Source: a plasmid. From it: a stretch of DNA of 64,000 bases. Shown one piece after another: positions 45,585 to 61,803 of the stretch. Within the stretch, counting starts at the first letter, position 1, and the number at the start of each line of letters is the position of its first letter. Location: sequence record NZ_CP014527.1. One strand, 5' to 3'. The translations under genes and the position numbers were made by a program. The notes under the pieces were generated by a model that worked only from the letters and a program-made list of their open reading frames with translations, searched no databases and was not told the DNA's origin.

Positions 45585-48500
45585 TCACCCAGGCATTGTC
45601 GGACAGACGTCAAGGACCGGGCTGGCCAGTTCCTGCAGGCCCGCCCCGACCGCACCGGCTAGGCACGACCCGCTGGTTGCCGCCCCGATGCCGCAGCCGG
45701 CAGCCGCGTGCACCAGAACCTTGCGCACGTCGCCGTCGCTGATCCCGAATTCAACCCCCAGATCCCCGATGCCCTGGAACACCTGCGCCGACACAACGTT
45801 GACCGCACCGGTCACCAGCGCCGAACGGGCCGCAGTGTCCAGACCTTCTCCGTTGACAGCCATATCCACAACGGCCAGCACACCGGTGTTGATCGCGGCC
45901 TGCGCCACTGTCTGCCCCAGTCCGGCCAGATGCCCTGCCGCACTGGCAACGCCTGCCCCGGCTGCGGTAGCACCGGTGGTTGCCGCTGTGGCTCCGGCTG
46001 CGGCCGTGGTGGTGGTTGCAGCCGTCGCCCCGGCTGTTGTTGTCGCGGCGGTGGCCCCGGTACTGGCTGTTGACCCGGCTTCGGTGCCGGCTCTGGTTAT
46101 GCCGCCGTCAAACCCCAGGCCATCACTGACCCCCTGGGTCAGGCCGGCCGTCAGGGCACTGACCACCAGGGACCGCAGGGTGTTGCTGGAAACAATGGAA
46201 CGCAGCGCACCCTGCATGTCACCGGACACCGCGCCGTTGGCAACAGAGGTCGAGACAGTCCCCGCAACACCGGCCAGGACGGCGTTTGTCATGGTCATGG
46301 CTGTCAGCTGGGCCGCTGTTCCGGCATAGGTGGCACCGGCCATCGACATGGTGGCCATGCCAGCCGACACCGACGTGCCGGCTGGCACTTCGGCAACACC
46401 GACGATATTGGCAGCCAGGCTGGCCGTGGCCCCGGCAGTCAGAACAGCGGTGGCAAGGGCAATCAGGGCCATGGTCCCGCCACCTATGCCGCTTTTCTGG
46501 TCATGCCAGCTGCGGTAGGTCTCTTCCACGCCCTTCCAGTCAACCCCCGGCAGGGTCCGGAGCGTTGCCAGATAACCAAGGCCGGGGGCCTGTGAAAGCT
46601 GGTCAAGGTCGGTCGCCAGGTCGCCGGTCGCACGGTATTCGACCACGATACCGCCCGGGCTTTCGATCACAAAGTCACCGCCGGACTCCAGAAGGGCGTG
46701 CCGGACCACCTCCCGTTCGTGGCCACGTTCTGTCATCGTCCACTTCAGGCCACCGTCCCGGTGTTCCGAAACCGACAGGACATCGCGTTCCGTGTCCGAG
46801 AGAAGGTGCAGCCTGGCATCCGGGGCCGCAAAGCGACCCTTCCCGACCCGCAGGGTCAGGGTGCCACCGGCGGAAACACGACTGGCGCGGATGGTGGTGT
46901 CGGATCCGGACTCCGTCGTCAGATCCGCAACAGAGCTGACATCAGAGCCTTTTATGCCGGTAAAGGCATGCTGCTCCGTACGGAAGCCACGTCCCCCCAG
47001 GAAGCCCCCAAAGGCACCGGATTTCTTGACCCGGTACGCGTGCACATACTGCTCGTGCAGTGATGTGACACGCAGTTCGCCCAGGGCGGTAATGTCGATA
47101 TTGCCGCCGCTCTGGATCCGGGACCCGGCAATCTCCATGTCACCGCCGGCATCCAGCGATACGGCGCGTCCCCCCGAAAGGACGCTGCTTTCATAGGTCA
47201 GCCGGCTCTCGTTGACATGCTCGGTCTTCTTCTTCCTGAAAAGACCCCGGCCTTTCGAGGTTGAACTGGACGCATAGCGCGAGGCCTGCGCACCCGCTGC
47301 CACAGACAGGGCATTGCCGGCGACCACATCCAGCCTGCCGTCGGCCGAAACCCGCGAGGCCTCGATGCCGATATCCGTACCCGACAGGCGGACATCGCCA
47401 CCGGACAAAACCGATGATCCCTGAAGGCGCTCAGCATACGCACTCCGCGTGCTTCTGCCGCTGCTTCCCGCATCGCTGGACACATCCCGCGTTGCACCGA
47501 CAACAAGACCACGACCGGCTTTCAGCGTCGCATTACCGGCAGCCTCAACCTTCGACCCCAGAACGGAAACCGCGCCATCCGCTTCAGCCGTCAGGGTACC
47601 GCCCGTGGAAATGGATGATCCCCGGGAGCGTTGGGAATGCGCGCTGTGTGTGCTTCGGCCGATGGTCCCAGCATAGGTGTGCTCATCGCGCGTAGCACCG
47701 ACAACAAGATCACCGCCGGCCTTCAGCGCCGTATTGCCGGCAGCCTCAACTTTCGAGCCCAGAACGGAAACCGTACCACCGGCCTCAACCGTCAGGGTGC
47801 CGCCCACATCAACCGTACTGCCACGATGGGTAACCGCTGTTCCGGATCCCCCGCCAATCTTTGTCCGGACGGTCCTGTATGCGTCACAGTCGCTCCTGCC
47901 TGCGGCACAGTCCGGGTTGCCTACACGCCGCTCGGCATAGGAGGCCCGGGTAAAACGGGTTTCTTCCTTCAGGCCTTCGATCGCGACATGACCGGCCTGG
48001 CTTTTGACGGCAAGATTGCCATCGGCTTTGACCCTGGTGCCAGCAAGGCGGACGGTGTCATGGCCGGATACAGACATGTCCCCGCCGGCGGCAAGCTCGC
48101 CACGTTCCAGATCAATGGTTCTTGCCGCAAGGGTTGCATCGCCCGTGCTTTTGATCTGCCCGCCCCCGCGCTGCCTGATGTCACCGGCGGTGATGGTTGT
48201 GGTGTTCCCGGCCACCAGCGCACCATTCCGGCGGTTCAGGAAGGCCATGGCCGCAGAAAGCGGAACGGTTCCATTTTCCAGTACCGGCGGGGATGCCAGG
48301 GCCTGCACAAGGTTCTCGCTGAGGAAGCGGTCTGCACCGGCCGCAATGTCTTGCGCGGGGCCAACGTTGTCGGCTCCCGCCCCGCCCGGCCATGCCGTAC
48401 GATCCAGCGACAGGATTTCAGACAGGCCCGGTTCGTGCTGTGCGGCCATGGGGCCGTAATTGAGGCGATCAAGAAGATACGCCGATGACAGGAAGGCTTT

Positions 48501-51062
48501 CTGGTCACCGGGTTTCTCGGCGGGAAGATCGCTTTTGGCAATTTGCAGGATTTCCTCCAGCTCCGTCCTCAGGGTGAGCAATGTGGAGGTCTCTGCCCCC
48601 GGAGTGCTGGGGACACGGTACTCCTGACCGGGGCTGGCCCGTCTCGGCCTGGGTGTTGTCGCGGCCTGTCGATCGTGAAGCTCGTCGACATGACCTTTAT
48701 CGCCCGTCTGGCTGTTGATCTCTGCCAGCATCTCTGCGGCGCTGCGGCTGCCGATCGTCAGGTTGTTGACCTGTTCCGCCTCGATATCCAGTATGCCACC
48801 GGCCTCAATCACCCCCCCGAAGGTATTGACGAAATCAAGGGTGCCTTGGTGACAGCTGTAGCAGGCGCGTTTGTGAACCTCGTGACGGGTACGGCTGGCC
48901 CCGAACGCAATATTGGTTACGGTCCGGGCCGAGATCTTCAGGTCCTGCCCGGCCCGGATTTCTCCGTAAACATTGCGGATACTGTCGGCATCCAGCGACA
49001 GGCCGCCGCCGGAACGGATCGTGGCCAGCACACCATCATCGTTGAGGGCATCCTCGGTGATCGTCACCAGGATATCGTAGCCCGCTCCTGAACCGGCACG
49101 GATTGCTTGCCACAGCGCACTGACTTCGGGCAGGATGGTCCCGTCCTTGATGTATTTCGGGTCAATCGCGGACAGGGTTGTGTCGTCCAGCGCCTGTCCG
49201 CTGGCAAGTTTCTCCCAGAGGGCAATATACCGCGTCCTGTAGGCGTCCTTGACAGGGAACGGGTCGACTTGCTCCACAACCGGTTCATCAACAGCGCTGT
49301 CGTCTGCGGTACTGTCATCTGCAGCAACGACCGGTACAACGCGCGCCTCCTCAACCAGCAGGTCGCGCATGAAATCAACGAGAGAGGGGACTCCGGCCTC
49401 GAAAGCCTTTCCGCTCAGGTTCTGGAAGTAGGCCACCCAGGCCGCTTTCGACCTGTCGGGATTGTCCTTGTCAAGGGCAGACGTGCGAAGCAGGCTGATA
49501 ATACGGGGGTCCAGAGGCGTATCCCCTGAGACCGTGCCGGAAAAGAAAGTCTCCAGAAGGAGCAGGTAGTCGTCACGCTTTCCAGGGTCAACGGAACCAT
49601 CCGGCGCGAGGATATCCGCTGACACCAGGCGATTGCGAATATCCTCGCCCGGATTTACGGGGTCAGACTTTTCTATTGACTTTCTGACCGTGTCCTTGAT
49701 CCTGACGGTCGGGGCCGTTCCCTCGTTGACAATGGACTTGGCCTTGACATGTAAACGGCCGCTACTGGCCTCTATCGTGCCGTTCCTGTTCACGACAGAT
49801 TCGGACCGTCCCTCCTCTCCTTTCGCATAGCCGATATCGAGCGTGTTTTTGCCAATGATCTTTCCGCCATCGTTGAGAACAAACGGCGCGTCGATGACAC
49901 TGTCCCCGTCAGAGAGCACCGTGCCCCTGTTCTCGACCCGCCGCCCGGCGGCCAGGGTTGTCTTCTGCCCGGACTTGATCGTCCCGCTGTTCTTGATGGT
50001 ATCAATAGCCCCGATCGAAACCGATGTGCCCGCATCGATGGTGCCTGTGTTGTCAACCGTATGAGCCGCGACAGAAATGCTGCCTGAACTTTTTATGGTA
50101 CCGGCGTTCTCGAACCGGGCTGTTGTTGTGATGGTGGTGTCCGTGCCGGCGGACAGGCTGGACCCGGATCCAAGGCGGATATACCCCTTTGCATCAAGCG
50201 TCAGGCTGGAAGCCGAGGCCATCGCGCCGTTCATGTTGACGCCGGCCCCGTCCTCGGTGGCAACAAGGGAAATCTGCCTGGCATACATTCCGCCCAGGGC
50301 GGCAACATCGAGGGCGATGTCCGGGGCCGGGGTATCAACGGTTATCGGGTCGGCCGCGAGGCTGTTGGCATCAACCCTGTTCGTCCCCATGACAACGTTC
50401 AGCGTGAGGCCCTTGACCTTGGCTTTTTCACGCAGGGCAATGGTGCGGGCAACAAGATCGATCTGACCGATGGATTGATCTTCCTTGGTGGCATCAAAAC
50501 CCGTTCCGTCGAACAGGATATCGCCGCCGCGGACATCAAAACGCTCCAGCTCACCCTGCTCATTGAAAATGGCCGCCCCGGTCGAGAGAGTTGCCCGGCT
50601 GGTATTGATGAAGCCACAGCTGTTACAGGTGATGCCATCCTCGTTGATCACAACGACGCGGGCTGTCGGTCCGACCACTTCCAGCAGACCGTCCATCTGC
50701 GAGCGGGTACCGCCGATGACCTGATGGATGATCAGCTCGGCCTCATGCCCGGGGGTCAGGTTGGGATTGCCCTCGATAAATCCCGCTTCAAGCTTTGAGT
50801 AGGCGGCAATGGCCGAATTGTTGTCGATGGCTCCGCGCGACGGGACATCGAACGTATGGTGCAGATTGTTTGATACGCCACTGCTGTTGGGCGTGTTGAT
50901 GTTGAAGAGCGGGATCCCGCTCCTTGACTGGTCGTCAAAGGCACGTTCCGTGTTCGTGACCGGCTGGGCGTGGACCAGAACAGGAGAGAGCGGGTAAAAC
51001 AGGGCCGCAAGCAAGGCGGATGCTTTCTGGAGCCAACGAAAGGCGCGTGTCAGTGTGTGCAT
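45585..51062 (-). CDS. Two-partner-secretion exoprotein (TpsA; filamentous haemagglutinin / CdiA-like). The C-terminus is frameshifted and truncated.
   Basis: N-terminal extended signal peptide and TPS domain with an NPNL motif (FIEGNPNLTPGHEAELIIHQVIGG), followed by long beta-helical FHA repeats including near-identical tandem ~200-bp DNA repeats around 47.4-47.9 kb. The ORF ends at 45585, but a haemagglutinin-like sequence continues in another frame (45588..~45250) before running into the IS5 remnant. Confidence 0.85.
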   Translation of the reverse strand: MHTLTRAFRWLQKASALLAALFYPLSPVLVHAQPVTNTERAFDDQSRSGIPLFNINTPNSSGVSNNLHHTFDVPSRGAIDNNSAIAAYSKLEAGFIEGNPNLTPGHEAELIIHQVIGGTRSQMDGLLEVVGPTARVVVINEDGITCNSCGFINTSRATLSTGAAIFNEQGELERFDVRGGDILFDGTGFDATKEDQSIGQIDLVARTIALREKAKVKGLTLNVVMGTNRVDANSLAADPITVDTPAPDIALDVAALGGMYARQISLVATEDGAGVNMNGAMASASSLTLDAKGYIRLGSGSSLSAGTDTTITTTARFENAGTIKSSGSISVAAHTVDNTGTIDAGTSVSIGAIDTIKNSGTIKSGQKTTLAAGRRVENRGTVLSDGDSVIDAPFVLNDGGKIIGKNTLDIGYAKGEEGRSESVVNRNGTIEASSGRLHVKAKSIVNEGTAPTVRIKDTVRKSIEKSDPVNPGEDIRNRLVSADILAPDGSVDPGKRDDYLLLLETFFSGTVSGDTPLDPRIISLLRTSALDKDNPDRSKAAWVAYFQNLSGKAFEAGVPSLVDFMRDLLVEEARVVPVVAADDSTADDSAVDEPVVEQVDPFPVKDAYRTRYIALWEKLASGQALDDTTLSAIDPKYIKDGTILPEVSALWQAIRAGSGAGYDILVTITEDALNDDGVLATIRSGGGLSLDADSIRNVYGEIRAGQDLKISARTVTNIAFGASRTRHEVHKRACYSCHQGTLDFVNTFGGVIEAGGILDIEAEQVNNLTIGSRSAAEMLAEINSQTGDKGHVDELHDRQAATTPRPRRASPGQEYRVPSTPGAETSTLLTLRTELEEILQIAKSDLPAEKPGDQKAFLSSAYLLDRLNYGPMAAQHEPGLSEILSLDRTAWPGGAGADNVGPAQDIAAGADRFLSENLVQALASPPVLENGTVPLSAAMAFLNRRNGALVAGNTTTITAGDIRQRGGGQIKSTGDATLAARTIDLERGELAAGGDMSVSGHDTVRLAGTRVKADGNLAVKSQAGHVAIEGLKEETRFTRASYAERRVGNPDCAAGRSDCDAYRTVRTKIGGGSGTAVTHRGSTVDVGGTLTVEAGGTVSVLGSKVEAAGNTALKAGGDLVVGATRDEHTYAGTIGRSTHSAHSQRSRGSSISTGGTLTAEADGAVSVLGSKVEAAGNATLKAGRGLVVGATRDVSSDAGSSGRSTRSAYAERLQGSSVLSGGDVRLSGTDIGIEASRVSADGRLDVVAGNALSVAAGAQASRYASSSTSKGRGLFRKKKTEHVNESRLTYESSVLSGGRAVSLDAGGDMEIAGSRIQSGGNIDITALGELRVTSLHEQYVHAYRVKKSGAFGGFLGGRGFRTEQHAFTGIKGSDVSSVADLTTESGSDTTIRASRVSAGGTLTLRVGKGRFAAPDARLHLLSDTERDVLSVSEHRDGGLKWTMTERGHEREVVRHALLESGGDFVIESPGGIVVEYRATGDLATDLDQLSQAPGLGYLATLRTLPGVDWKGVEETYRSWHDQKSGIGGGTMALIALATAVLTAGATASLAANIVGVAEVPAGTSVSAGMATMSMAGATYAGTAAQLTAMTMTNAVLAGVAGTVSTSVANGAVSGDMQGALRSIVSSNTLRSLVVSALTAGLTQGVSDGLGFDGGITRAGTEAGSTASTGATAATTTAGATAATTTTAAAGATAATTGATAAGAGVASAAGHLAGLGQTVAQAAINTGVLAVVDMAVNGEGLDTAARSALVTGAVNVVSAQVFQGIGDLGVEFGISDGDVRKVLVHAAAGCGIGAATSGSCLAGAVGAGLQELASPVLDVCPTMPG

Positions 51063-51084
51063 GGCTTCCCCCGGGCTCCTGTTC

Positions 51085-52770
51085 CTAGAACGACAGCGCC
51101 ATCTGCACGTACTTCACCGTGCCAGGATCGGTAAAAGAGGCCGGGCGCTCAAGGGCCCGTGCAACGCTCAGGTCAAGATGAAGCCGACTGAAAAGAGACA
51201 GCCGGACGCCTGCCGAAGCCCCGACCAGAACCGATTGCCCATAGGTCCGGTGATCATCGGCGCTCAGGGTGACAGAGCCACCGTCCAGCCCGAGAACGAA
51301 CGCAACCTGTGTATCAGGGTCCTAGTGCAGCCGGATCGCCAGATCATTGCGGGTCGAGAGACCTTTGCTTCCTGACAAGCTGTTTTCCTGGAACCCGCGT
51401 ATGCCGAAAGAGCCCCCGCCCGGGGAAAACCGGTCGGAACTCGACAGGGCACTGCGTGAGTACTGGCCCCGGATCTGATGATCCAGACGCAAGAGACCAT
51501 CCATGAACCGGGCATACACCGCCGAAGTGCCCGTAACCAGGAACGGCTCCGGATCAAGCGCGGGGTTCAGGGGTCTTCGTGCCCCCAGGGCCTCCATGCC
51601 CCGGATCGCATTGACGGACCAGCTGTGGTAGCCCCCTGCAAAATGGGTCCGTCCGTTCAGGCCAGCCTTCGCCTTGGTCGCAAAACGACGCTGGACAAGG
51701 ACCTCATGGTCACCCAGATAATTCCTTGAACGGGACAGGCCGACCCCGGCAACCGCATAGACCTTGGCTGCCTGACCACGCTACAGAAGGCGCTGCAGGT
51801 CTGCCGACAGCCTGTGATTATACCCATGCAGGGGGAAGCGCTGGTTGATGCCCGGAAGCGTGAACCTGTACGTGTTGTACCCGGCTCCGATGTGCAGGCC
51901 CCAGTTCCCGAAAGGGATCAGATAACGGCCGTGTACATCCCGGGCGTAGGTCTTGCCCCCTGAAAGTCCCCTTGTCGTCGATGATACGCCAAGCCGGAGC
52001 GTGTCGTTGCGATTGAGGAGATTGTCGTAATGGACGTCTGCCCCGGTCTTGTAGCGACCGGTATTCCGGTAGCCAAGATTGTCCAGGGACAGGCGTCCCC
52101 CGAGCGGGAACCTGTTTTGCGGGGATATCCGGACAATGGAGGTCCCGTGGCGGGTTCCGGGGTACAGCTTGAAGGTGCCGGACTGTGTCGGCGGAGCGTT
52201 GAAGTTCTCAAGGGCCTGTTCGATATCACGCAGGTTGACAATATCCCCCTGTCCTGACGGAAAGGCAGAATGGATACGGGAATCAGCCGCCTGCCCCCCT
52301 TCATAGTCGAAGTCCTCGATCCGTCCGGAAATCACAAGAACACGAAGCGTACCACCGGAGAGATCCTGCTCGGGCAGATAGACCCGGGTCGTGATCCACC
52401 CCCTGCCGGCATAGAATGCGTTCATGCTGTCCAGATAGCGGCTCAGATCACCCTGTCGTACGCACGTGCCGTTCAACCTGTCGACATCAGGGGGAACCAG
52501 GTCCAGGTCTTCGGCCCCTTCAACCCTGGTTGTGGATACCGGAAAACAGGGACCCGGATCCTCTTCCCGGTCATCCGGTCCGTCCCCGGGACGTTCCAGA
52601 TGAATATCAGGCCGTTTGTCCGGCTCGGCGTTGAAGTCCCAGTCCCTTTGCTGCCGGCGCAACTGCTCCTGCTCGATGGATTTCACAACATCCTCGGGCG
52701 TGACCTGCGCAACCCCCGGACAGGCTGCAAGGAAAAGGGATGCAAGCACACACAGGACAAACCGGTTCAT
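51085..52770 (-). pseudogene. TpsB (ShlB/FhaC/CdiB-family) outer-membrane transporter whose frame is conserved throughout but interrupted by two in-frame TAG codons
   Basis: Signal peptide MNRFVLCVLASLFLAAC, POTRA and barrel regions, and a C-terminal ...YVQMALSF ending in the canonical terminal Phe. In-frame amber codons lie at 51781-51783 and 51322-51324. The ORF track shows this gene as separate pieces (51781..52866 and 51322..51597). Confidence 0.75.
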
Positions 52771-54487
52771 GAACACACAAGGCCCCCCTCCGGGACCAGT
52801 CAGGGACTGGCCGAAAGCCGTAATGAATGACGGAAGGGATCCTGTGATTTTCGCACGACCAAGCACGTCGGCCCCTGCCTGAGGCCGGGGACAGCGATAT
52901 TGTGTGTGCGATCACACACCACACGATGCAGACCGATAAAAACCGATCTGCCCAAAACAGTGTCTGCGAAGGAAATTCCTTGTGAAGACCGGCCCGTGGC
53001 CCCTTGCAGGGCTTGTAGCAGATCCCTCCCCCCCCACGATTTTGACGATGTCCCAAAGGACATCTTTTTTGATTGTGCAAACCCTATATCACTACCACAG
53101 GTAAATGAAAATGGTAAAATGAAAACAGGTCGGGATAAAAATAAGAGGTGGTGTGCCCTTGTCAGCACCCCTGACGGAATACCGTTGCGCATGCCTGTTC
53201 TCCCACGAGGAATGTGGGTGGCGCACTATGTGCCACAGGGATCGAGCATGGCAGGGCCGCCTCCCTGACCGGGGGAGCATCAAGGGCGGGCATGCATAAA
53301 GCAGCGTCCGGACTATTTTCCCGGGCAGGACGTGCCAAAAGAAAAGCACTCTTCCCCCGCCGCGCTTGCGGCTTAAAGATGGCTTTTTTTCTGCAGTACA
53401 GAGGATGCCCCTATGCCAACAGTTGCCTTGCTTTCCACGCATCGTGGGGGCCTGTCCAATCTCTGCATTTTTCTGCCGTTCCCTGCATGCCCGGACGACT
53501 GCCATTCAACGCCCACGAAAGGCCTTTGGATCTTGCTGAATGTGTGGGCACAACAGACAGGGGAGCGTTGTCCGCAAGGCACCCTGTAAAAACACCCGGG
53601 TTTCTCACGCTTGCGTTGAGCACGGCCCGGCCGTGCGAACAAGCATCCTCATCGAATGAGAACAGGAGGTGGGCCCACCTCCTCTATCCTGCCGGTGGGT
53701 ACGACGGAGAAACTTTGAGATTCTTTGAGACAGGGGCATAGATACTTGCCAATTTCATTTGCACCTCTGTTCGTAGTTATACATAGTGGTCTGAGTAACA
53801 ATAAAACAGAAAACCTACATAATAATTTTGGCGATCAACGCCAGAGACGCAATTCCTCGATCGTTTTTCTGTGGCAATTTAAGTGATGCTTCATCAGGCG
53901 GATGTCGTGGTCGTAATCCTGCTCCGTACGAAACGCGTAATCCGGATCAATATTGCGGCAACGCTACTGTGAAAGGCTGTACGATCAACTCAGAGCGCTT
54001 GGCCTAGTTGTCAATGTCGTCGTACTCTGAAACACGATCTACAATGGATGTGGGCCTGGAACAGCTCATAGTAGAGGTCTACGATGCTCGACCTGAATAA
54101 GTTGCATGCCTGTCGCCGCTTGGCTCAAAACACGTCAATATGTTCGGCTGATGCACCTTCTCTCTGCCGGAATTCGTGGCTTGACGCGAACTTAGGTCGT
54201 TACGCGATCCTCAGAAAACTGCCCCTGACGAGCCCTGAAATCCTTAAGTAGTTTTTCTGTTCCGTTGCTACTCAAATCCCTATTTCTGGCGAATTATTGT
54301 GGCCCTGCTGTTTCCGTCCGTTTTACGTTATCTGTATGTGTTATATAAGGTTAAACCGTTATAGATTCTATTTAGCTAATTCTATCAGTCAGTTAAATGG
54401 ATAATTGTGCGTGATCTACCGAGTCTTATTGCACGCAATATACCGATATACAGGTCGTGTTATCCACAGGCTTGGCCTTGCTTTTTA

Positions 54488-55176
54488 TCATTCGTCAATC
54501 TCACTCGGCGGGGGTAAAAGCTCCATGGTTTTATGAGTGAATACGGCCAAGATGCGATCATTCCGCCCCCAACGCCACGCGTTGGTCCCGAGATCTTCAT
54601 TCATGCGTTGTTGCTCAGGGTCTGACTTGTCGAATGCCAGACCAACCCGATATTGTGGCAGACTATCAGCTTCCGAGATTTTCTTCAGATAAACTTTGAA
54701 ATTACGGAGCTCCATTTCTGAGCCACACCTTTCCGCCAGGCGCGGCAGAGAAATCTTCCATATCGGCTGACGGCCACAATGCTTGCGTGCCAGCTCGTAA
54801 AGCCGCCTTTCCAAGCCCATCTTGAGCCTGAAATACCCGCGATCAATGGTGAGAACACGCCTGTTCTCGACAATTGCACGAAACATCCATTTGTTCAGGG
54901 TCAATTCAACGGCGGCCATTACCCTCTGTCCACGCGAATTGATGCGCTCGACAATCCTGTAGCTGTCGATCCACGAGAATCCCTGGCATTCACGCTCCTC
55001 ATTCTGTCCAGAGGTAATGGTGGTGCGAATAGTGGTGCTCTGCAGCCGGTCCAGTGCAGACATGAAGAGTTCGTAAGCTTGTTTGCCTGTTCCGCGTCCG
55101 GTAAGCCTGAGAAAGTCATAGACCGGAAATTGAATGGTGCGGTTTACAGAGGCGCCACGTTCAAGGCGGCTGTTCC
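54488..55176 (-). pseudogene. Plasmid replication initiator RepA (RPA family), missing its N-terminus and ending exactly at the first CRISPR repeat
   Basis: ...NRTIQFPVYDFLRLTGRGTGKQAYELFMSALDRLQSTTIRTTI...FSWIDSYRIV...LTIDRGYFRLKMGLERRLYELARKHCGRQPIWKISL matches the RPA consensus block by block. The reading frame stays open upstream of the track start at 55063 and runs into repeat 1 at 55177 with no start codon. About 60-100 N-terminal codons of the family are absent. Confidence 0.75.
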
Positions 55177-55605
55177 GTTGCTGCTTGACCGCAATTTCTG
55201 AGATGCTAGTCTTCTATGCCGGTGAGCATGTCCTGGACCGTGTTGCTGCTTGACCGCAATTTCTGAGATGCTAGTCTAGAACAAGGTTGAAGCCGCCTAC
55301 CGGCGCGTTGCTGCTTGACCGCAATTTCTGAGATGCTAGTCTTCGGGCCACGACAGGAGGGTTGGGATGATGGTTGCTGCTTGACCGCAATTTCTGAGAT
55401 GCTAGTCTGCCTGCCACACATAGGCGATACCTGCGAGCGTTGCTGCTTGACCGCAATTTCTGAGATGCTAGTCTAACGCTGAAAATAGACCCGGCTGTGG
55501 TTCTGTTGCTGCTTGACCGCAATTTCTGAGATGCTAGTCTGTATTCAGGAAATAGCCAGCGTTATTGGCGTTGCTGCTTGACCGCAATTTCTGAGATGCT
55601 AGTCT
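55177..55605 (+). CRISPR. CRISPR array with 7 identical 36-nt repeats (GTTGCTGCTTGACCGCAATTTCTGAGATGCTAGTCT) and 6 spacers of 29-30 nt
   Basis: Repeats are at 55177, 55242, 55307, 55373, 55439, 55505 and 55570. Spacers are tctatgccggtgagcatgtcctggaccgt, agaacaaggttgaagccgcctaccggcgc, tcgggccacgacaggagggttgggatgatg, gcctgccacacataggcgatacctgcgagc, aacgctgaaaatagacccggctgtggttct and gtattcaggaaatagccagcgttattggc. The strand is assigned from complementarity to the tracrRNA. Confidence 0.95.
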
Positions 55606-55679
55606 TGATCAGCGCTTTGCGCCTTGATTCCACTTGATAATATCGCGATGTAGCGGTGTATTTTTTGCACACATCGCTC

Positions 55680-56024
55680 CTATAGCAACACCAGTTGCGA
55701 CGGATTTTCGCGGGCCCTCCGCCGGTCTTGGTTCGAAAAGTGAACGATGTTGCGGAACTGACGGTCCGTAAGAGCCAAAATCTGGACGTCACCCTTGTCG
55801 GGCAAGGCCTGTTTAATGCGACGAATGCGGGCCTCAAGAGCCTCCTTCCCATTCACAAAACGACCATAAGCCGAAAACTGGCTGCGTTCAAAGCCTTCAT
55901 CAAGGAGAAAATTCCGGAAGTCCGTAGCAGCCTTGGCCTGGGCCCTGGTCCCGACCGGCAGGTCGAACATGACCAGCACCCACATCAGACGATATCCGCT
56001 GAGATGATACGTGGTTCCATTCAT
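55680..56024 (-). CDS. cas2: Cas2 (type II)
   Basis: 114 aa. LSGYRLMWVLVMFDLP...FRNFLLDEGFERSQFSAYGRF...RIKQALPDKGDVQILALTDRQF is typical of type II Cas2. The ATG overlaps the cas1 stop. Confidence 0.85.
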   Translation of the reverse strand: MNGTTYHLSGYRLMWVLVMFDLPVGTRAQAKAATDFRNFLLDEGFERSQFSAYGRFVNGKEALEARIRRIKQALPDKGDVQILALTDRQFRNIVHFSNQDRRRARENPSQLVLL

Positions 56025-56932
56025 GATCCCAAGGCACGAAAGGTATCGATCGAAGGGAGACCGGGCAAGGCAAGCGCAAGACGACGCGTTTCGAAGCTGC
56101 GTGCAAGCGAGGAGGCCAGACGCCCAAGTACTGTGGCCAGGGGTGTCGTTTCATCCGCCAACGGCAGGTCAAGGGCAATAAGCCGGGCCAAGGCTGCCTT
56201 GGCGGACGGTGTGACGTCTGTGCCTTCCCGTCTGACGATCTCCCGGACAGTCATGTCAACAAACGGACGGAAGGGTTCCATCAGGTCATCGGCCAAGGCA
56301 AAAGCATTGCCGCGATTGGCATGAAAGATACCGATAGCAGGGTGCAGACCAGCACCGGCAACAGCCCGTGCGGTGGCGGCACGCAGAACAGTATAGCCGT
56401 AATTGAGAAGCGCGTTGATGCCACCGCCATCGGTATTCCGGCGGAAATCCGGCCCCATCATCAGTGGCCAGTAAAAGCGGGCGGCCTGTGCCTCAATGTT
56501 GCCTGTGTCACCGGACCGGACACGACGCGCCATCATGCGAAGGGGAGCTGAGGACTGTCCAATGGCTTCGAGCGATGCAGCCTGTATACCGATCTTGGCA
56601 ATGACGATGGCCTTCCAGGCCCCCTTCACCAGAGGTACGGGCGCAGACCATTGGGCACGAATGCGCGCACCCTGTTGGTGGTGCCCCTCCATCGGCCACA
56701 GAAGGCCCGTTGGGCGATGATTTGACCCGCAGATGACAACAGGTGTGCCCTGTTCCGCGAGCGCAGCCAGCAGCGCGTTGGACCAGGTTATCCCGTGGGC
56801 ATGGGCCAAAACTGCGGCGACTTGATCGAGAGGCACGCGGGCGATCCGCTTTCCTCCCTCGCTTACGGTCAGAAATCCACGGTCACGGGCCAGATGGCGA
56901 CCATCCTGTGTGAGGTCAATGATCTGATCCAT
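56021..56932 (-). CDS. cas1: Cas1 (type II)
   Basis: 303 aa Cas1 integrase. It lies 59 nt downstream of the cas9 stop. Confidence 0.9.
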   Translation of the reverse strand: MDQIIDLTQDGRHLARDRGFLTVSEGGKRIARVPLDQVAAVLAHAHGITWSNALLAALAEQGTPVVICGSNHRPTGLLWPMEGHHQQGARIRAQWSAPVPLVKGAWKAIVIAKIGIQAASLEAIGQSSAPLRMMARRVRSGDTGNIEAQAARFYWPLMMGPDFRRNTDGGGINALLNYGYTVLRAATARAVAGAGLHPAIGIFHANRGNAFALADDLMEPFRPFVDMTVREIVRREGTDVTPSAKAALARLIALDLPLADETTPLATVLGRLASSLARSFETRRLALALPGLPSIDTFRALGS

Positions 56933-56991: not shown

Positions 56992-59900
56992 TTACCCTTT
57001 TCTGCCAGGATCACGGAAATGACCTGTTTCATCCACAATAATGCGACGGGCACCCGCCTCGATCAGGGTGCGGGCAGTGAAACGCAGATAAAGGTCTTCT
57101 TTATATTTCTCACAGCGCTTCCTTGCATTGGATGCCGTGTGCGGCACCAAGGAAATCTTACCGTTACGGTCGAACATCACAACGGTAGCAATAACCGGAC
57201 CAAACTTGCTGTCATCCAGCTTTACCATGTCGGACTTGAACAAACGCAAAAGCCGCTTGGCCGCCGGATGTGGGCGTGGCTCAGGGCCAGGTTGGTGGGC
57301 ATCGAAGGTGCTGACAATATGTTCGGTGATGGCTCCTCCGGGTAACCTCCAGACCTCAAAGCAATGGTTGGAATTGCCTTTATAGCCTTTGTAAGCCCGA
57401 CCGGATGCATCCCGTATTTCGACTACGCTGATCGGCTCGATCAACCGGACGCGGCGGATCCCGTGGTAAGGGCCAGGCCTGTCGCGGAAGTGTGCCAGCG
57501 CTTCGGCAAACGCATCATCCTTCTTGCCGGCGGTCACGGCCGCAAGGGCTGCCTTCAACGGTTCGTCCCTGATCTTGCCGATCATGGTGGGGGTCAGGTT
57601 GTCGAAGGGCTCGCGGGTAACCACAAGCGGAACACCCTTCTCGGATTGCCCGGTCAGGCCATAGGCCGTGTCGCGGTGCAAGGGGCCGGTTGTCTGGTCG
57701 CGCCCTTTCATGCGGGTCGTGAGGTCGATCCGGCCATGATCGGGGCGGTGGCTGACAATGATACGGTCGACTTGTGCCGCAACCGCTTCACGGAACCCGG
57801 GCCACGGGGGCATGATGGATGAGGCCAGTGCCTCACGGCCCTGATCGACATCTGTACGCGCCTGCTCGGCCATCGCCTTGATCAGGCCACGGTCTGTTGC
57901 CGCCACCACAGCCGCATCAATGGCGTGGTGACGGTGGTCCATCCGGTTCTTCTCTTTTGTGACATCACGCAGCGGGTCCGTAAGAATCCCGTTCAGACCC
58001 CAGTGCCGGCGCAGCATCTCTGTCAGCCGCCCTGGAACGACCCAGACATGGCTCTTGCCATCTGCACCGTCATAGAGCGTTTCAAGATAGGCCTTGGATA
58101 TTCGCGAAAGGTACTGGGTATCCACCAGCGCCCGCGCCTCGAAATCCCGCTCGCCCTCAAACCGTGCCATCGCATCTTCGGCAAAGCGCCAGCGCTTGAA
58201 TTCAGGAATATGGCGCAGATTGTCGTCTTCAAGCGCCCAGATCCGCATCCCGTCCCGCCGGGCTTCTGATGGCGATTTGTTGCGCTTCTGGCGATTGGCT
58301 TCCTTCATGCACAGGGTGCGGTTGGCCGTGCTGTCGTCAAGTGTACGGGAATAGGGCAGGATGTGATCGATGTCGATCGCGCCCGAGAAGAGCAAAGAGG
58401 GTGAAATGATGGTCCCGGTATAAGGGCAACGCCGCATCATCGGATCTTCGTGGAGTTCCTGCCAAAGACGAACATACATGCGGTTCGCACCCGTATCCGG
58501 AACACCCCATTCGGTCAGGAGAGCAGACCGTGCTTCGGCGGCCTTTCTGTTCTTGAGATTCAGGGCTATGGCCGCCTTTTTCTGGCCGGTGCTTTGCTTC
58601 AGGTCGCGAGCCAGTTCGACCACGATCTCTGCTGGTTTACCATAGCGGGCGATGATCCTGTTCACCAGGCGGCGCAGCTGGTTCAGCCCGATGTGAACCG
58701 TCGGGTTGGTGATCCGTCCAAAACGTGTGATATCGTCATGATGCGGCTCACCGGTCCCCGGGATAACATGAGCCTGCAGCACTTCACCATAATAGGGAAG
58801 TGATTCCAGAATCTCGCCCGTCCGGCGGTCGGAGTGGTGTTGATCGAGCGCCTTCCCCACCGCCTCGCTATAGGTCAGGACCTCGGCTTTCAAGCAGTCC
58901 AACAGCTTCCGCGTTGCTGTCTCGCCAAGGCGACCATAGCCTTCGGGCAGGGGGGCATCAGCCGTTGCGCGTGCATGCGCATCGTCCAGGCCGTGGACCT
59001 GCTTCAGCCACTCAACCAGAGCCATGGTATCATCATCATCACGAATACGCCCGACGATTTCGGCCTGCACCTCAGCCTCAAGCACCGACCAGCGCGGGCC
59101 GAAGCGGTCGGGGTGCGACAGGCTCGCCCGGACCGGATCGCAGGCGATGTAATCGCGCCCCTTCTCCAAGGTAAAGGTCTGCCCGTCACGCAACTTGAGA
59201 TGTTTTGCGATAGCCTTCAGCGACAGTTTCGCGGAGGCTATGGCCTTGACCGGTGCCTTGCCGTCCAGAAGCATGATGACTTTATCACGCTGCTCCTTGC
59301 CGAGGGGAACAGCGGCCCCGCTTTCGGTCCTGATCCGCAGCGCATTGACTGTTTCATAAAGAACACGCCGCTGTGTCAGCGGATGAGCCCTTGGCAGGCG
59401 CGGTTCCGGGAAGAACAGACACCGTCCCACCGCTGGTGCTTTCAGGGGACGCTGAAAGAAGATTGTCTCAAACACTTCATGGCGCAGGCTATCTGTCAGC
59501 ACCGGGTGATGTGCGGCCTGCGCAGCCCAGACCTTGTTGAACTCTTCCTCCAGGTGTCGCCGGTCCGGGTAGAAGTCATACCCCGTTTCTGCTTTTCCAC
59601 CGTCAACGGACCGCAAGGTAAGCCGCGTGCGAACAGACGGCACACGGCGCAGATCTTCGGCTTGGCTGCGACGCAGGTGCAGGAATTCGCCATAGGTCCG
59701 CGCTCCGACGGCCATCATCGCCTGATCCAGCCGTGCAGAACCATCGATGATCTTGCCGCCCTCGTTGTTGCCACGGTCCGTTTGGCGGTTCGACTTGAAG
59801 CCCCGCCGTTGGTTAAGATGGAACAACGCCCGCCCGAGTTCGGTAAGTTCCAATCGGCGATCCAGGGCATCGGCCCGCAGACGATAGGGATCCAGTAACT

Positions 59901-60177
59901 CCAACGGCTTCGCCTGACTTGGGTCTTCCGGCATCAAACCGGCCGCCGCAAGGCGCCTCATCAACGCTGCACGACGGCGCAAATATCGGTCACGCCGTCG
60001 CCGCAACGCGCGCGCATTGCGACGCTCCACGGCTGACGAAACGCCTGTCTTCGCGTCCCGGCCATCCGAGAAAAGTCTCACGCCACAATCTATAATCTCG
60101 GCAATCATGCCGTTGGTTATGCGATAGAGAAACCAGCCGATGGATGTGGAACCGATGTCGAGCCCAAGACGAAGCAT
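56992..60177 (-). CDS. cas9: Cas9, compact type II-C (about 1061 aa), with all catalytic motifs intact
   Basis: RuvC-I MLRLGLDIGSTSIGW, RuvC-II EIVVELARDL, HNH DIDHILPYSRTLDDSTANRTLCMKEANRQKRNKSP, and RuvC-III RHHAIDAAVVAATD. The true ATG is at 60177. The track ORF to 60354 carries a spurious 59-aa N-terminal extension. There is no csn2 or cas4, so this is subtype II-C. Confidence 0.95.
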   Translation of the reverse strand: MLRLGLDIGSTSIGWFLYRITNGMIAEIIDCGVRLFSDGRDAKTGVSSAVERRNARALRRRRDRYLRRRAALMRRLAAAGLMPEDPSQAKPLELLDPYRLRADALDRRLELTELGRALFHLNQRRGFKSNRQTDRGNNEGGKIIDGSARLDQAMMAVGARTYGEFLHLRRSQAEDLRRVPSVRTRLTLRSVDGGKAETGYDFYPDRRHLEEEFNKVWAAQAAHHPVLTDSLRHEVFETIFFQRPLKAPAVGRCLFFPEPRLPRAHPLTQRRVLYETVNALRIRTESGAAVPLGKEQRDKVIMLLDGKAPVKAIASAKLSLKAIAKHLKLRDGQTFTLEKGRDYIACDPVRASLSHPDRFGPRWSVLEAEVQAEIVGRIRDDDDTMALVEWLKQVHGLDDAHARATADAPLPEGYGRLGETATRKLLDCLKAEVLTYSEAVGKALDQHHSDRRTGEILESLPYYGEVLQAHVIPGTGEPHHDDITRFGRITNPTVHIGLNQLRRLVNRIIARYGKPAEIVVELARDLKQSTGQKKAAIALNLKNRKAAEARSALLTEWGVPDTGANRMYVRLWQELHEDPMMRRCPYTGTIISPSLLFSGAIDIDHILPYSRTLDDSTANRTLCMKEANRQKRNKSPSEARRDGMRIWALEDDNLRHIPEFKRWRFAEDAMARFEGERDFEARALVDTQYLSRISKAYLETLYDGADGKSHVWVVPGRLTEMLRRHWGLNGILTDPLRDVTKEKNRMDHRHHAIDAAVVAATDRGLIKAMAEQARTDVDQGREALASSIMPPWPGFREAVAAQVDRIIVSHRPDHGRIDLTTRMKGRDQTTGPLHRDTAYGLTGQSEKGVPLVVTREPFDNLTPTMIGKIRDEPLKAALAAVTAGKKDDAFAEALAHFRDRPGPYHGIRRVRLIEPISVVEIRDASGRAYKGYKGNSNHCFEVWRLPGGAITEHIVSTFDAHQPGPEPRPHPAAKRLLRLFKSDMVKLDDSKFGPVIATVVMFDRNGKISLVPHTASNARKRCEKYKEDLYLRFTARTLIEAGARRIIVDETGHFRDPGRKG

Positions 60178-60367
60178 GTTACGAACCCAAATAAAAAAGA
60201 TGGGGGAATAATTGTTCGACCCTTGATTTATGTCAACACACAACGCCATCCAAGGTAGTGATTCAAAGTGGCAAACATCGAGCGTCCCAAATTCGATCGG
60301 ACAGACGGGAGCATTTTCCTGGAAAAGGTGACTGATTGCACCTTGACAACTCACGGCAAATAAATGA

Positions 60368-60462
60368 GAGTTCGGCTCTCAGAAATTGCGGTCGAGCCGT
60401 TAACAAGCTCGACAGAGCACCACATAGAAACCCGGGGCTACGGCCCCGGGTTTCCTTTTTGT
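60368..60462 (+). ncRNA. tracrRNA, encoded divergently just upstream of cas9
   Basis: The anti-repeat GGCTCTCAGAAATTGCGGTCGAGCCG at about 60374-60400 is complementary to the repeat (17 contiguous matches, about 24/27 overall). It is followed by a small stem (GAGC..GCTC) and a strong terminator (CCCGGGGCTACGGCCCCGGG then TTTCCTTTTT at 60431-60460). Confidence 0.7.
60431..60460 (+). terminator. Rho-independent terminator of the tracrRNA
   Basis: A GC-rich perfect 8-bp stem with a 4-nt loop, then a T-run. Confidence 0.7.
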
Positions 60463-60925: not shown

Positions 60926-61498
60926 TCATTCATCAACTTCGTGAACAGAAAGTCCGCGAGCTGCGGCTTCAGCAAAAATAACACGCTGGGTAAGAGACGA
61001 TTCAAAAACAGGAACATCTGGATAAGCTGCCAGCGCCTCACGCACATCGCACCCGATTGCCGTATTTGATATTTTGCGATTTATAACAAATGCGTATTTA
61101 AGGTTTTCTTTAAAAACAATCGCTTCGCCAATAAGCTTGACGACCTCATCTGATGCCCATATGTCGTAAGGCGATGGCTGTGTAGGGATCAGAACAACAT
61201 CGGCGGCCATAACGGCAGATCGGGCTAAATCAGTGACACGGGGTGGCCCGTCAATCACAACGTGATCATAGCCATAGCCAATCTGGCCTATCTCTTTATG
61301 CAATGTTGGACGTGGAAGACCCGCAACTGAAAGCAACGGTGCCGCTTCACGAGCCGCCGCTCAATCAAGGCTGCTGCCTTGCGGATCTGCATCAATCAAC
61401 AAGACACGCCCACCACGACGCGCCAGACTTGCCGCAACATTGACACTGAGTGTTGTTTTCCCAACACCACCCTTCTGATTCAGAAACCCGACAATCAT
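60926..61498 (-). pseudogene. ParA/ParF-family partition ATPase with an in-frame TGA replacing a conserved Trp
   Basis: [45 protein letters not shown] then a TGA at 61361-61363, then AAAREAAPLLSVAGLPRPTLHKEIGQ...VIDGPP in the same frame. The family has Trp at this position (DPQGS..W). Confidence 0.7.
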
Positions 61499-61803
61499 GT
61501 GCGCAGTCCTTCATGATTTAAGGAAAATACTTTTTCTTTAAATCATGAAAACTGTCAAAGGTAAAACAACAGAATGAGGTACATCACCCCGTCGTAGAAA
61601 TAGCTGTTTTTACGACGTGGCCACTCCAGCTACAGGTAAAAGCTGTTCCGGATGCGGATGGTAAAATAACAAATAGAATCAGTGCATTAAGCTGGACAAA
61701 AGATAACCCGGGGATATATGTCATACGTATACATCTACAAGACCCGCGCCCCGGCCTGCACACCACAGGGCCGGGGCTGCCCCATAAATCAGGGAGAACC
61801 CCC

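Follow-up and report, generated by a model that had tools for sequence, protein, structure and literature searches.

[quoted passage not shown]

Each repeat of the CRISPR array described here probably acts as a plus-strand promoter for RNA polymerase carrying the housekeeping sigma factor, with the arrangement CTTGAC(C)-16 nt-TG-C-TAGTCT. On the sequence evidence set out below, the probability of this reading is placed at about 0.72. The strongest evidence for the repeats as candidate promoters is comparative and comes from the conservation of the repeat 3′ end among related loci.

The array lies within the window, i.e., the whole 64,000-nt stretch of plasmid DNA (record NZ_CP014527.1) that was analyzed, and belongs to the type II-C CRISPR-Cas locus of Haematospirillum jordaniae, in which cas9-cas1-cas2 occupy the minus strand. 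The elements of the locus and its left border are as follows.

54488..55174, minus strand: 5′-truncated plasmid-type replication initiator gene (Pfam RPA, repA), with a frame open to 2 nt from the first repeat
55177-55605, plus strand: seven exact copies of the 36-nt repeat GTTGCTGCTTGACCGCAATTTCTGAGATGCTAGTCT, starting at 55177, 55242, 55307, 55373, 55439, 55505, and 55570
55606..55679, plus strand: flank on the acquisition (“leader”) side, from the last repeat to the cas2 stop codon
55680..56024, minus strand: cas2 (TIGR01573, E 4e-19)
56021..56932, minus strand: cas1 of the type II, NMENI subtype (TIGR03639, E 3e-67)
56992..60177, minus strand: cas9, 1061 aa (NCBIfam match; 1060 of 1061 residues identical to H. 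jordaniae Cas9)
60208..60236, minus strand: promoter-like site for cas9 (TTGACA, 17 nt, AATTAT)

The mechanically derived reading frame of cas9 reaches 60354, which sets the start 59 codons too early and makes the frame overlap the tracrRNA promoter and anti-repeat. Since the identity of 1060 in 1061 residues with the annotated H. jordaniae Cas9 runs from 60177, the gene is taken as 56992-60177. The stretch from cas9 to the array contains no csn2, cas4, or other fourth cas gene, and beyond the array the nearest gene is the repA remnant; the locus is therefore of type II-C. The original prediction had classified it in the same way, and the assignment stands on an NCBIfam-matched Cas9, a type II Cas1, and Cas2 as the only Cas proteins, with the array downstream of cas2. 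That all seven repeats are identical was likewise correct; however, the repeat sequence given at that time had lost “TGC” after GTTGC and thus comprised 33 letters instead of the true 36. The repeats enclose six spacers, each of 29-30 nt. Spacers of type II-C systems enter at the last repeat, beside cas2, and the newest spacer would therefore be that at 55541-55569.

At its other end, the array abuts the truncated repA, in which Pfam RPA profile positions 1-61 are missing; DNA similarity to the repA of a Magnetospirillum plasmid extends up to 55174. This old end has the appearance of a deletion junction, at which the original end of the array was probably lost, and such a deletion would explain why the first repeat is intact. 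The lack of a degenerate terminal repeat, to which the original prediction had drawn attention, follows from the identity of the seven copies but is not unusual, since the oldest repeat is intact in 22 of the 41 related arrays with a visible old end; a published survey of type II-C arrays places the share with an intact first repeat at about 40%.

The surroundings of the locus show further signs of decay. A ParA-type partition ATPase gene (60926-61500, minus strand) carries an in-frame stop after ...DPQGSSLD and is probably a pseudogene, which, together with the truncated repA, suggests that the locus sits in a decayed plasmid replication/partition module; in the relative L081, the ParA and RPA genes are intact and adjoin cas2. 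To the left of the locus, a two-partner secretion pair spans 45585-52866 on the minus strand. One partner is a filamentous haemagglutinin-like protein of 1825 aa (TPS domain, haemagglutinin repeats, and DUF637), and the other is a ShlB/FhaC-type transporter, whose listed open reading frame matches only the first 120 of the 311 ShlB profile positions and may be truncated. A megablast search of the whole locus against a plasmid database returned no match. Searches for protospacers of the six spacers gave matches at chance level only in the phage and plasmid collections (E 0.07-0.9), and two spacer cores had no counterpart in the viral contigs searched. As no protospacer exceeds chance, PAM and targets are unusable as an independent check of orientation.

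The direction in which the array is read is instead set by its tracrRNA, the gene of which lies upstream of cas9 and comprises the following elements.

60343..60460, plus strand: tracrRNA gene, divergent from cas9
60343-60348, plus strand: tracrRNA −35 element TTGACA (CCTTGACA at 60341-60348)
60377-60404, plus strand: anti-repeat, the only sequence strongly matching the reverse-complemented repeat
60407-60418, plus strand: small hairpin
60427-60454, plus strand: terminator with a 12-bp G+C-rich stem
60456-60460, plus strand: T run

A tracrRNA from the plus strand pairs only with repeat RNA of plus sense, and the crRNA sense is therefore plus; the predicted repeat:anti-repeat duplex has an energy of −46.3 kcal/mol with a plus-sense crRNA versus −38.2 kcal/mol with the opposite sense. 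The comparison set used throughout consists of 80 related Cas9 loci, all alphaproteobacterial, with Cas9 identities of 42-95%. In 46 of them the same tracrRNA architecture recurs, with GTTAACAAG after the anti-repeat followed by the hairpin and the terminator, which settles the crRNA sense for the whole family; in the window the array is read from left to right, converging on cas2. Transcription of the array opposite to the cas9-cas1-cas2 operon, as had been predicted, is thus supported by complementarity to the tracrRNA and by the strand of the latter, both in the window and in the 46 relatives.

The −35 element of the tracrRNA genes is also shared, since TTG, usually within CTTGAC, occurs 55-57 nt upstream of a GTTAAC anchor in 35 of the 46 loci; the −10 regions are poorly conserved. 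The start of the tracrRNA is expected at the 5′ edge of the anti-repeat, so that the anti-repeat would not cover repeat positions 28-36. An Rfam search of the 50-64 kb interval with E values up to 1 yielded no match to a tracrRNA or CRISPR family, the only hit being a chance snoRNA-like match (E 0.16). Besides the array after cas2, two relatives, L065 (4092-5310 and 10617-11698) and L058 (4739-5693 and 10669-10967), have another one upstream of cas9 that is built from the same repeat.

Given this tracrRNA, it is highly improbable that the cas9-cas1-cas2 transcript continues through the array on the minus strand and that the plus-strand motif is a chance resemblance. Such a transcript would find the array directly downstream of cas2, on the same side, with no strong minus-strand terminator in between, and the motif alone is statistically unremarkable. 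However, a repeat RNA made from the minus strand would share the sense of the anti-repeat and could not pair with it; moreover, hairpin and terminator fix the strand of the tracrRNA, both in the window and in 46 relatives.

The putative promoter consists of two elements, which recur in every repeat.

55185..55190, plus strand: −35-like TTGACC of repeat 1 (CTTGAC with the preceding C; repeat positions 9-14), recurring at 55250, 55315, 55381, 55447, 55513, and 55578
55204..55212, plus strand: extended −10-like TGCTAGTCT of repeat 1 (TG + C + TAGTCT), recurring in each repeat, the last copy ending at 55605

TG occupies repeat positions 28-29 and TAGTCT positions 31-36, with 16 nt between TTGACC and TAGTCT. 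The plus-strand arrangement that had been described from a first reading is therefore present in all seven copies; the accompanying term “near-consensus” overstates the match. Measured against the E. coli-type consensus, for a host that is alphaproteobacterial, TTGACC agrees with TTGACA at 5/6 positions and TAGTCT with TATAAT at only 3/6 (T1, A2, and T6). A sigma-70 scan under the E. coli definition (at least 4/6 per hexamer, 9/12 overall, and a spacer of 16-18 nt) accordingly flags the repeats on neither strand, the sum being 8/12. To qualify as a promoter, the repeat needs either the TG extension or a comparison with alphaproteobacterial consensus motifs, and its −10 hexamer stands at the weak end of its repeat family.

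Alphaproteobacterial promoters differ from the E. coli type. The consensus of Sinorhizobium meliloti is CTTGAC-N17-CTATAT, and that of Caulobacter is TTGaCgS / GCtANAWC. Repeat positions 8-13 read CTTGAC, positions 29-32 read GCTA, which is the core of the Caulobacter −10 motif, and the 16-nt spacing (13 nt between the longer Caulobacter motifs) fits both consensuses. In contrast, the downstream half of the −10 element in the repeat, GTCT, matches neither S. meliloti nor Caulobacter.

Two estimates describe how often such a motif arises by chance. The exact pattern TTGAC-N14-16-TGNTANNNT has no other site in the 64 kb, where 0.17 matches are expected, whereas a composite E. coli-type score at least equal to that of the repeat (5 + 3 + TG) is reached at 49 other sites in the 64 kb, i.e., at a rate of about 0.38 per kb of strand or approximately one per 2.6 kb. 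The seven repeat copies count as a single event. By itself, the motif is thus weak evidence and suggestive at most; it rises above chance because of its conservation pattern across the repeat family.

This pattern was derived from 50 distinct 36-nt repeats of related loci, oriented in the crRNA sense. T31 and A32 are present in 50/50, G29 in 48/50, C30 in 47/50, and T36 in 42/50 repeats, so that 42/50 retain TAnnnT; the first base of the TG extension, T28, is found in 25/50. The bases within the motif are nearly free, with 0.03 bits of information at position 33 and 0.28 bits at position 34. Such a 3′ end, with GC in front of TAnnnT, has the signature of a −10 element. When each repeat is set against its own tracrRNA in a fixed register (46 loci), most positions within 1-27 are Watson-Crick paired in 30-46 of the loci, whereas positions 28-36 are paired in just 8-22. 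The latter lie outside the crRNA:tracrRNA duplex, and pairing in the guide scaffold therefore cannot explain their conservation.

The oldest repeats, which accumulate changes, display the same preference. The first repeat is mutated in 19 of the 41 arrays with a visible old end; 35 of the 62 mismatches in the oldest repeats fall at positions 1-8, and GCTA and T36 are touched in one doubtful copy only. The published type II-C survey holds that the first repeat must keep its promoter, with which the present pattern agrees. A deletion of the outer end of the repeat would look similar, and the test is therefore supportive and not decisive. A minimal array belongs to the relative L081 (10505-10682; the crRNA sense is the minus strand of that locus), whose Cas9 is 80% identical. 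It has two repeats and one spacer, is adjoined by a BrnT/BrnA toxin-antitoxin pair, and its older repeat has eight mismatches with GCTA...T kept.

A different explanation of the conserved 3′ end is that GCTA...T is kept for the Cas1-Cas2 integrase, with the repeats not acting as promoters and the array being transcribed from an unrecognised external promoter on the plus strand. Spacers of type II-C systems enter at the last repeat, which makes the repeat 3′ end the leader junction, and the adjoining leader has conserved bases of its own (GAT at +2 to +4, T20, and G21) as well as a conserved hairpin. This explanation is nevertheless improbable. The bases at the junction, positions 33-36, are the least conserved of the repeat, contrary to what junction recognition predicts, while TAnnnT with a free middle is the expectation for a −10 element. 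Furthermore, the oldest repeats, which lie far from the site of integration, retain their 3′ end even where they have decayed. The sigma-70 scan found no promoter-like site on the plus strand from 54491 to the first repeat, and the left flank is occupied by the truncated gene on the opposite strand, which argues for promoters internal to the array. Integrase recognition could contribute to the conservation of GCTA.

The −35 element of the putative repeat promoter behaves differently from the −10 element. TTGAC occurs at positions 9-13 in 5/50 related repeats, TGGAC occurs in 32/50, and TTGGC, shifted one base leftward, in 10/50; the closest relatives outside Haematospirillum, with Cas9 about 80% identical, have TGGACC. 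The −35 element is thus a feature of the lineage and not of the family. The base that creates it, at repeat position 10 (55186 and its equivalents), lies opposite tracrRNA position 60394, at the one internal position of the duplex where Watson-Crick pairs are rare (only 7/46 loci); the remaining loci have G facing G (20), G-U (16), or U-G (3). Position 10 appears to be a conserved non-canonical spot in the crRNA:tracrRNA scaffold, at which a change from G to T costs the scaffold little. Position 4 of the repeat forms G-U in 42/46 loci.

The CTTGAC of the repeat is the same −35 element as that of the tracrRNA genes of the family and of the S. meliloti consensus. It also overlaps bases held by pairing with the tracrRNA, and its presence could therefore be incidental. 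An alternative proposal is that promoter activity resides, as in Neisseria, in the −10-like 3′ end alone, with TTGACC being an inert by-product of tracrRNA pairing. The rarity of TTGAC relative to TGGAC and the shifted TTGGC speaks for an inert TTGACC, as does the pairing of positions 7-14 with the anti-repeat in nearly all loci; in addition, the −10 hexamers of metagenomic TTGACC arrays are strong in some and weak in others, with no sign of compensation. An inert TTGACC is nonetheless rather unlikely, because the G10-to-T change that creates TTG falls at the rarely paired position and is free for other selection, because CTTGAC is the conserved tracrRNA −35 in the same loci and the dominant alphaproteobacterial promoter element, and because the TTGACC variant arose in several separate repeat lineages.

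A scan of metagenomes added further array lineages with TTGACC, all of which keep TA...T. Compensation between −35 and −10 strength was considered, as 4/5 TTGAC repeats from genome loci have weak −10 hexamers; this idea was rejected, since the −10 element of the metagenomic TTGACC arrays is strong as often as weak. The additional good −35 element of the original prediction is thus real as a sequence and matches the alphaproteobacterial CTTGAC, but it is shared by only 5/50 repeats and overlaps pairing bases. With these points taken together, the −35 element of the repeat is somewhat likely to add strength to the promoter.

Beyond the last repeat, a second feature is conserved. The 60 nt following the last repeat were folded for 47 non-redundant loci outside Haematospirillum, together with L001 and the window (n = 49). 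The 47 loci share a hairpin of roughly 47 nt, which begins within 1-6 nt of the last repeat and in most cases reaches nt 46-48. Over all 49, its mean z-score against shuffled sequences is −5.3, and its mean energy is −24.6 kcal/mol in the crRNA sense versus −19.8 kcal/mol on the opposite strand. It is more stable in the crRNA sense in 39/49 loci (Wilcoxon p = 4e-7), with 98 G-U pairs in the sense versus 31 in the antisense orientation. This asymmetry hints at an RNA of crRNA sense, which would itself lend indirect support to transcription leaving the last repeat, and it also stands against a minus-strand reading of the array. The sequence of the hairpin is variable except for GAT at +2 to +4, A13, T20, and G21. 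An RNAalifold consensus on a MAFFT alignment of the leader hairpin showed no structure, as the alignment does not bring the 3′ arms into register; per-sequence folds were used instead.

In the window, a short hairpin at 55607-55629 is followed by a weak hairpin at 55640-55659 and TTTTTT at 55661-55666, and L001 is alike; conservation of the flank extends to L001 and, in part, to L081 and L083. A T run follows the post-array hairpin in 20% of the loci versus 5% at random places. The hairpin as a plain terminator was tried and set aside, since a T run in only 20% of the loci means that it is not simply a terminator, and in the window the 75-nt flank is predicted to fold preferentially with a different second hairpin, in which the T run is buried. 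Candidate roles are an RNA insulator or terminator and, alternatively, a leader element for spacer integration. For Riemerella, the literature mentions a palindrome in the cas2-side flank in passing; no study of the function of a post-array hairpin or palindrome was found.

Based on the above, we propose that RNA polymerase with the housekeeping sigma factor would bind each repeat and start transcription about 5-8 nt into the next spacer, a position suggested by analogy with Campylobacter (nt 5) and Neisseria (nt 6). Transcription would then cover the remaining ~22-24 nt of the spacer and the following repeat, of which positions 1-27 pair with the plus-strand anti-repeat of the tracrRNA (60377-60404). 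Cas9 would bind the resulting crRNA:tracrRNA duplex, and RNase III would probably cut within it, forming the 3′ end of the crRNA. With a start inside the spacer, the 5′ end of the guide would be made by transcription initiation rather than by processing.

A more tentative proposal, which we consider doubtful, is that the type II-C systems of this clade go beyond the Neisseria and Campylobacter models as described in two respects, i.e., a full two-element promoter in the repeat and the conserved ~47-nt hairpin after the array. According to this proposal, the change from G to T at repeat position 10 may create the CTTGAC −35 element with the guide scaffold unharmed, and the hairpin, as RNA of crRNA sense, may stop or stabilise the transcripts before they run antisense into cas2; in Haematospirillum, a short hairpin plus one with a T run behind it would take its place.

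If the repeats act as promoters, the repeat-as-promoter design of type II-C systems would extend to a large group of alphaproteobacterial Cas9 loci, and the comparative evidence for it, an invariant TA...T outside the duplex, is independent of the few model organisms. One short repeat would serve several roles, with positions 1-27 as the guide scaffold and the last nine bases for transcription, and a single unpaired repeat position would let the −35 element appear. For users of H. jordaniae Cas9, the analysis sets the orientation of the guide, its likely length (about 22-24 nt), and the boundaries of the tracrRNA. A search of a paper library found no paper that ties Haematospirillum to repeat-embedded promoters and no H. 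jordaniae transcriptome.

Compared with known systems, the locus in the window differs in its transcription from type II-A loci, with which it shares a tracrRNA, Cas9, RNase III, and a similar repeat length. In type II-A, one leader promoter drives the array in the direction of the cas genes and spacers enter at the end where transcription starts, whereas the array in the window runs in the opposite direction and no external promoter is seen.

Within type II-C, recent papers treat repeat-embedded promoters as a general property, and they have also been inferred in Flavobacterium. In Clostridium cellulolyticum, repeat-embedded promoters were inferred, with heterologous expression in E. coli (PMC7038990). 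As in the window, its array is transcribed against the direction of the cas genes, and the last nine nucleotides of its repeat are similar to an extended −10 element (PMC7038990); unlike in the window, its Cas9 is distantly related to that of H. jordaniae. In Campylobacter jejuni, promoters embedded in the repeats were demonstrated experimentally (Dugar et al. 2013, PMC3656092). The repeat there ends in the extended −10-like GGTAAAAT, spacer nt 5 is the first base of the primary transcripts, and the contribution of RNase III and tracrRNA is limited to the crRNA 3′ end (PMC3656092). Each repeat in the window likewise ends in an extended −10-like box. However, Campylobacter promoters are generally without a −35 element and rely on the extended −10, whereas the alphaproteobacterial host of the window uses a strong −35.

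Among the closest parallels is Neisseria meningitidis, for which crRNA promoters embedded in the repeats, with starts at the sixth spacer nucleotide, have been shown according to later accounts of the original work (Zhang et al. 2013, via PMC5965381, PMC12477760). As described in those accounts, the locus resembles the window in having cas9-cas1-cas2 only and an array read towards cas2. The Neisseria repeat likewise has 36 nt, begins with GTTG, and ends with TGCTAnnnT; it shares 17/36 positions with that of the window, including TGCTA at 28-32 and T36. Its −10 element, TACAAT, agrees with TATAAT at 5/6 positions by direct comparison, versus 3/6 for TAGTCT. No −35 element has reportedly been described for Neisseria, whereas the repeat in the window has CTTGAC. 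The window differs further in that its tracrRNA lies upstream of cas9 and that its repeat promoter is a predicted one. The present observations leave the understanding of type II-C systems unchanged, as the repeat-embedded promoter arrangement is already known from Neisseria and Campylobacter, and the −35 element in the window represents a modest local variation on it.
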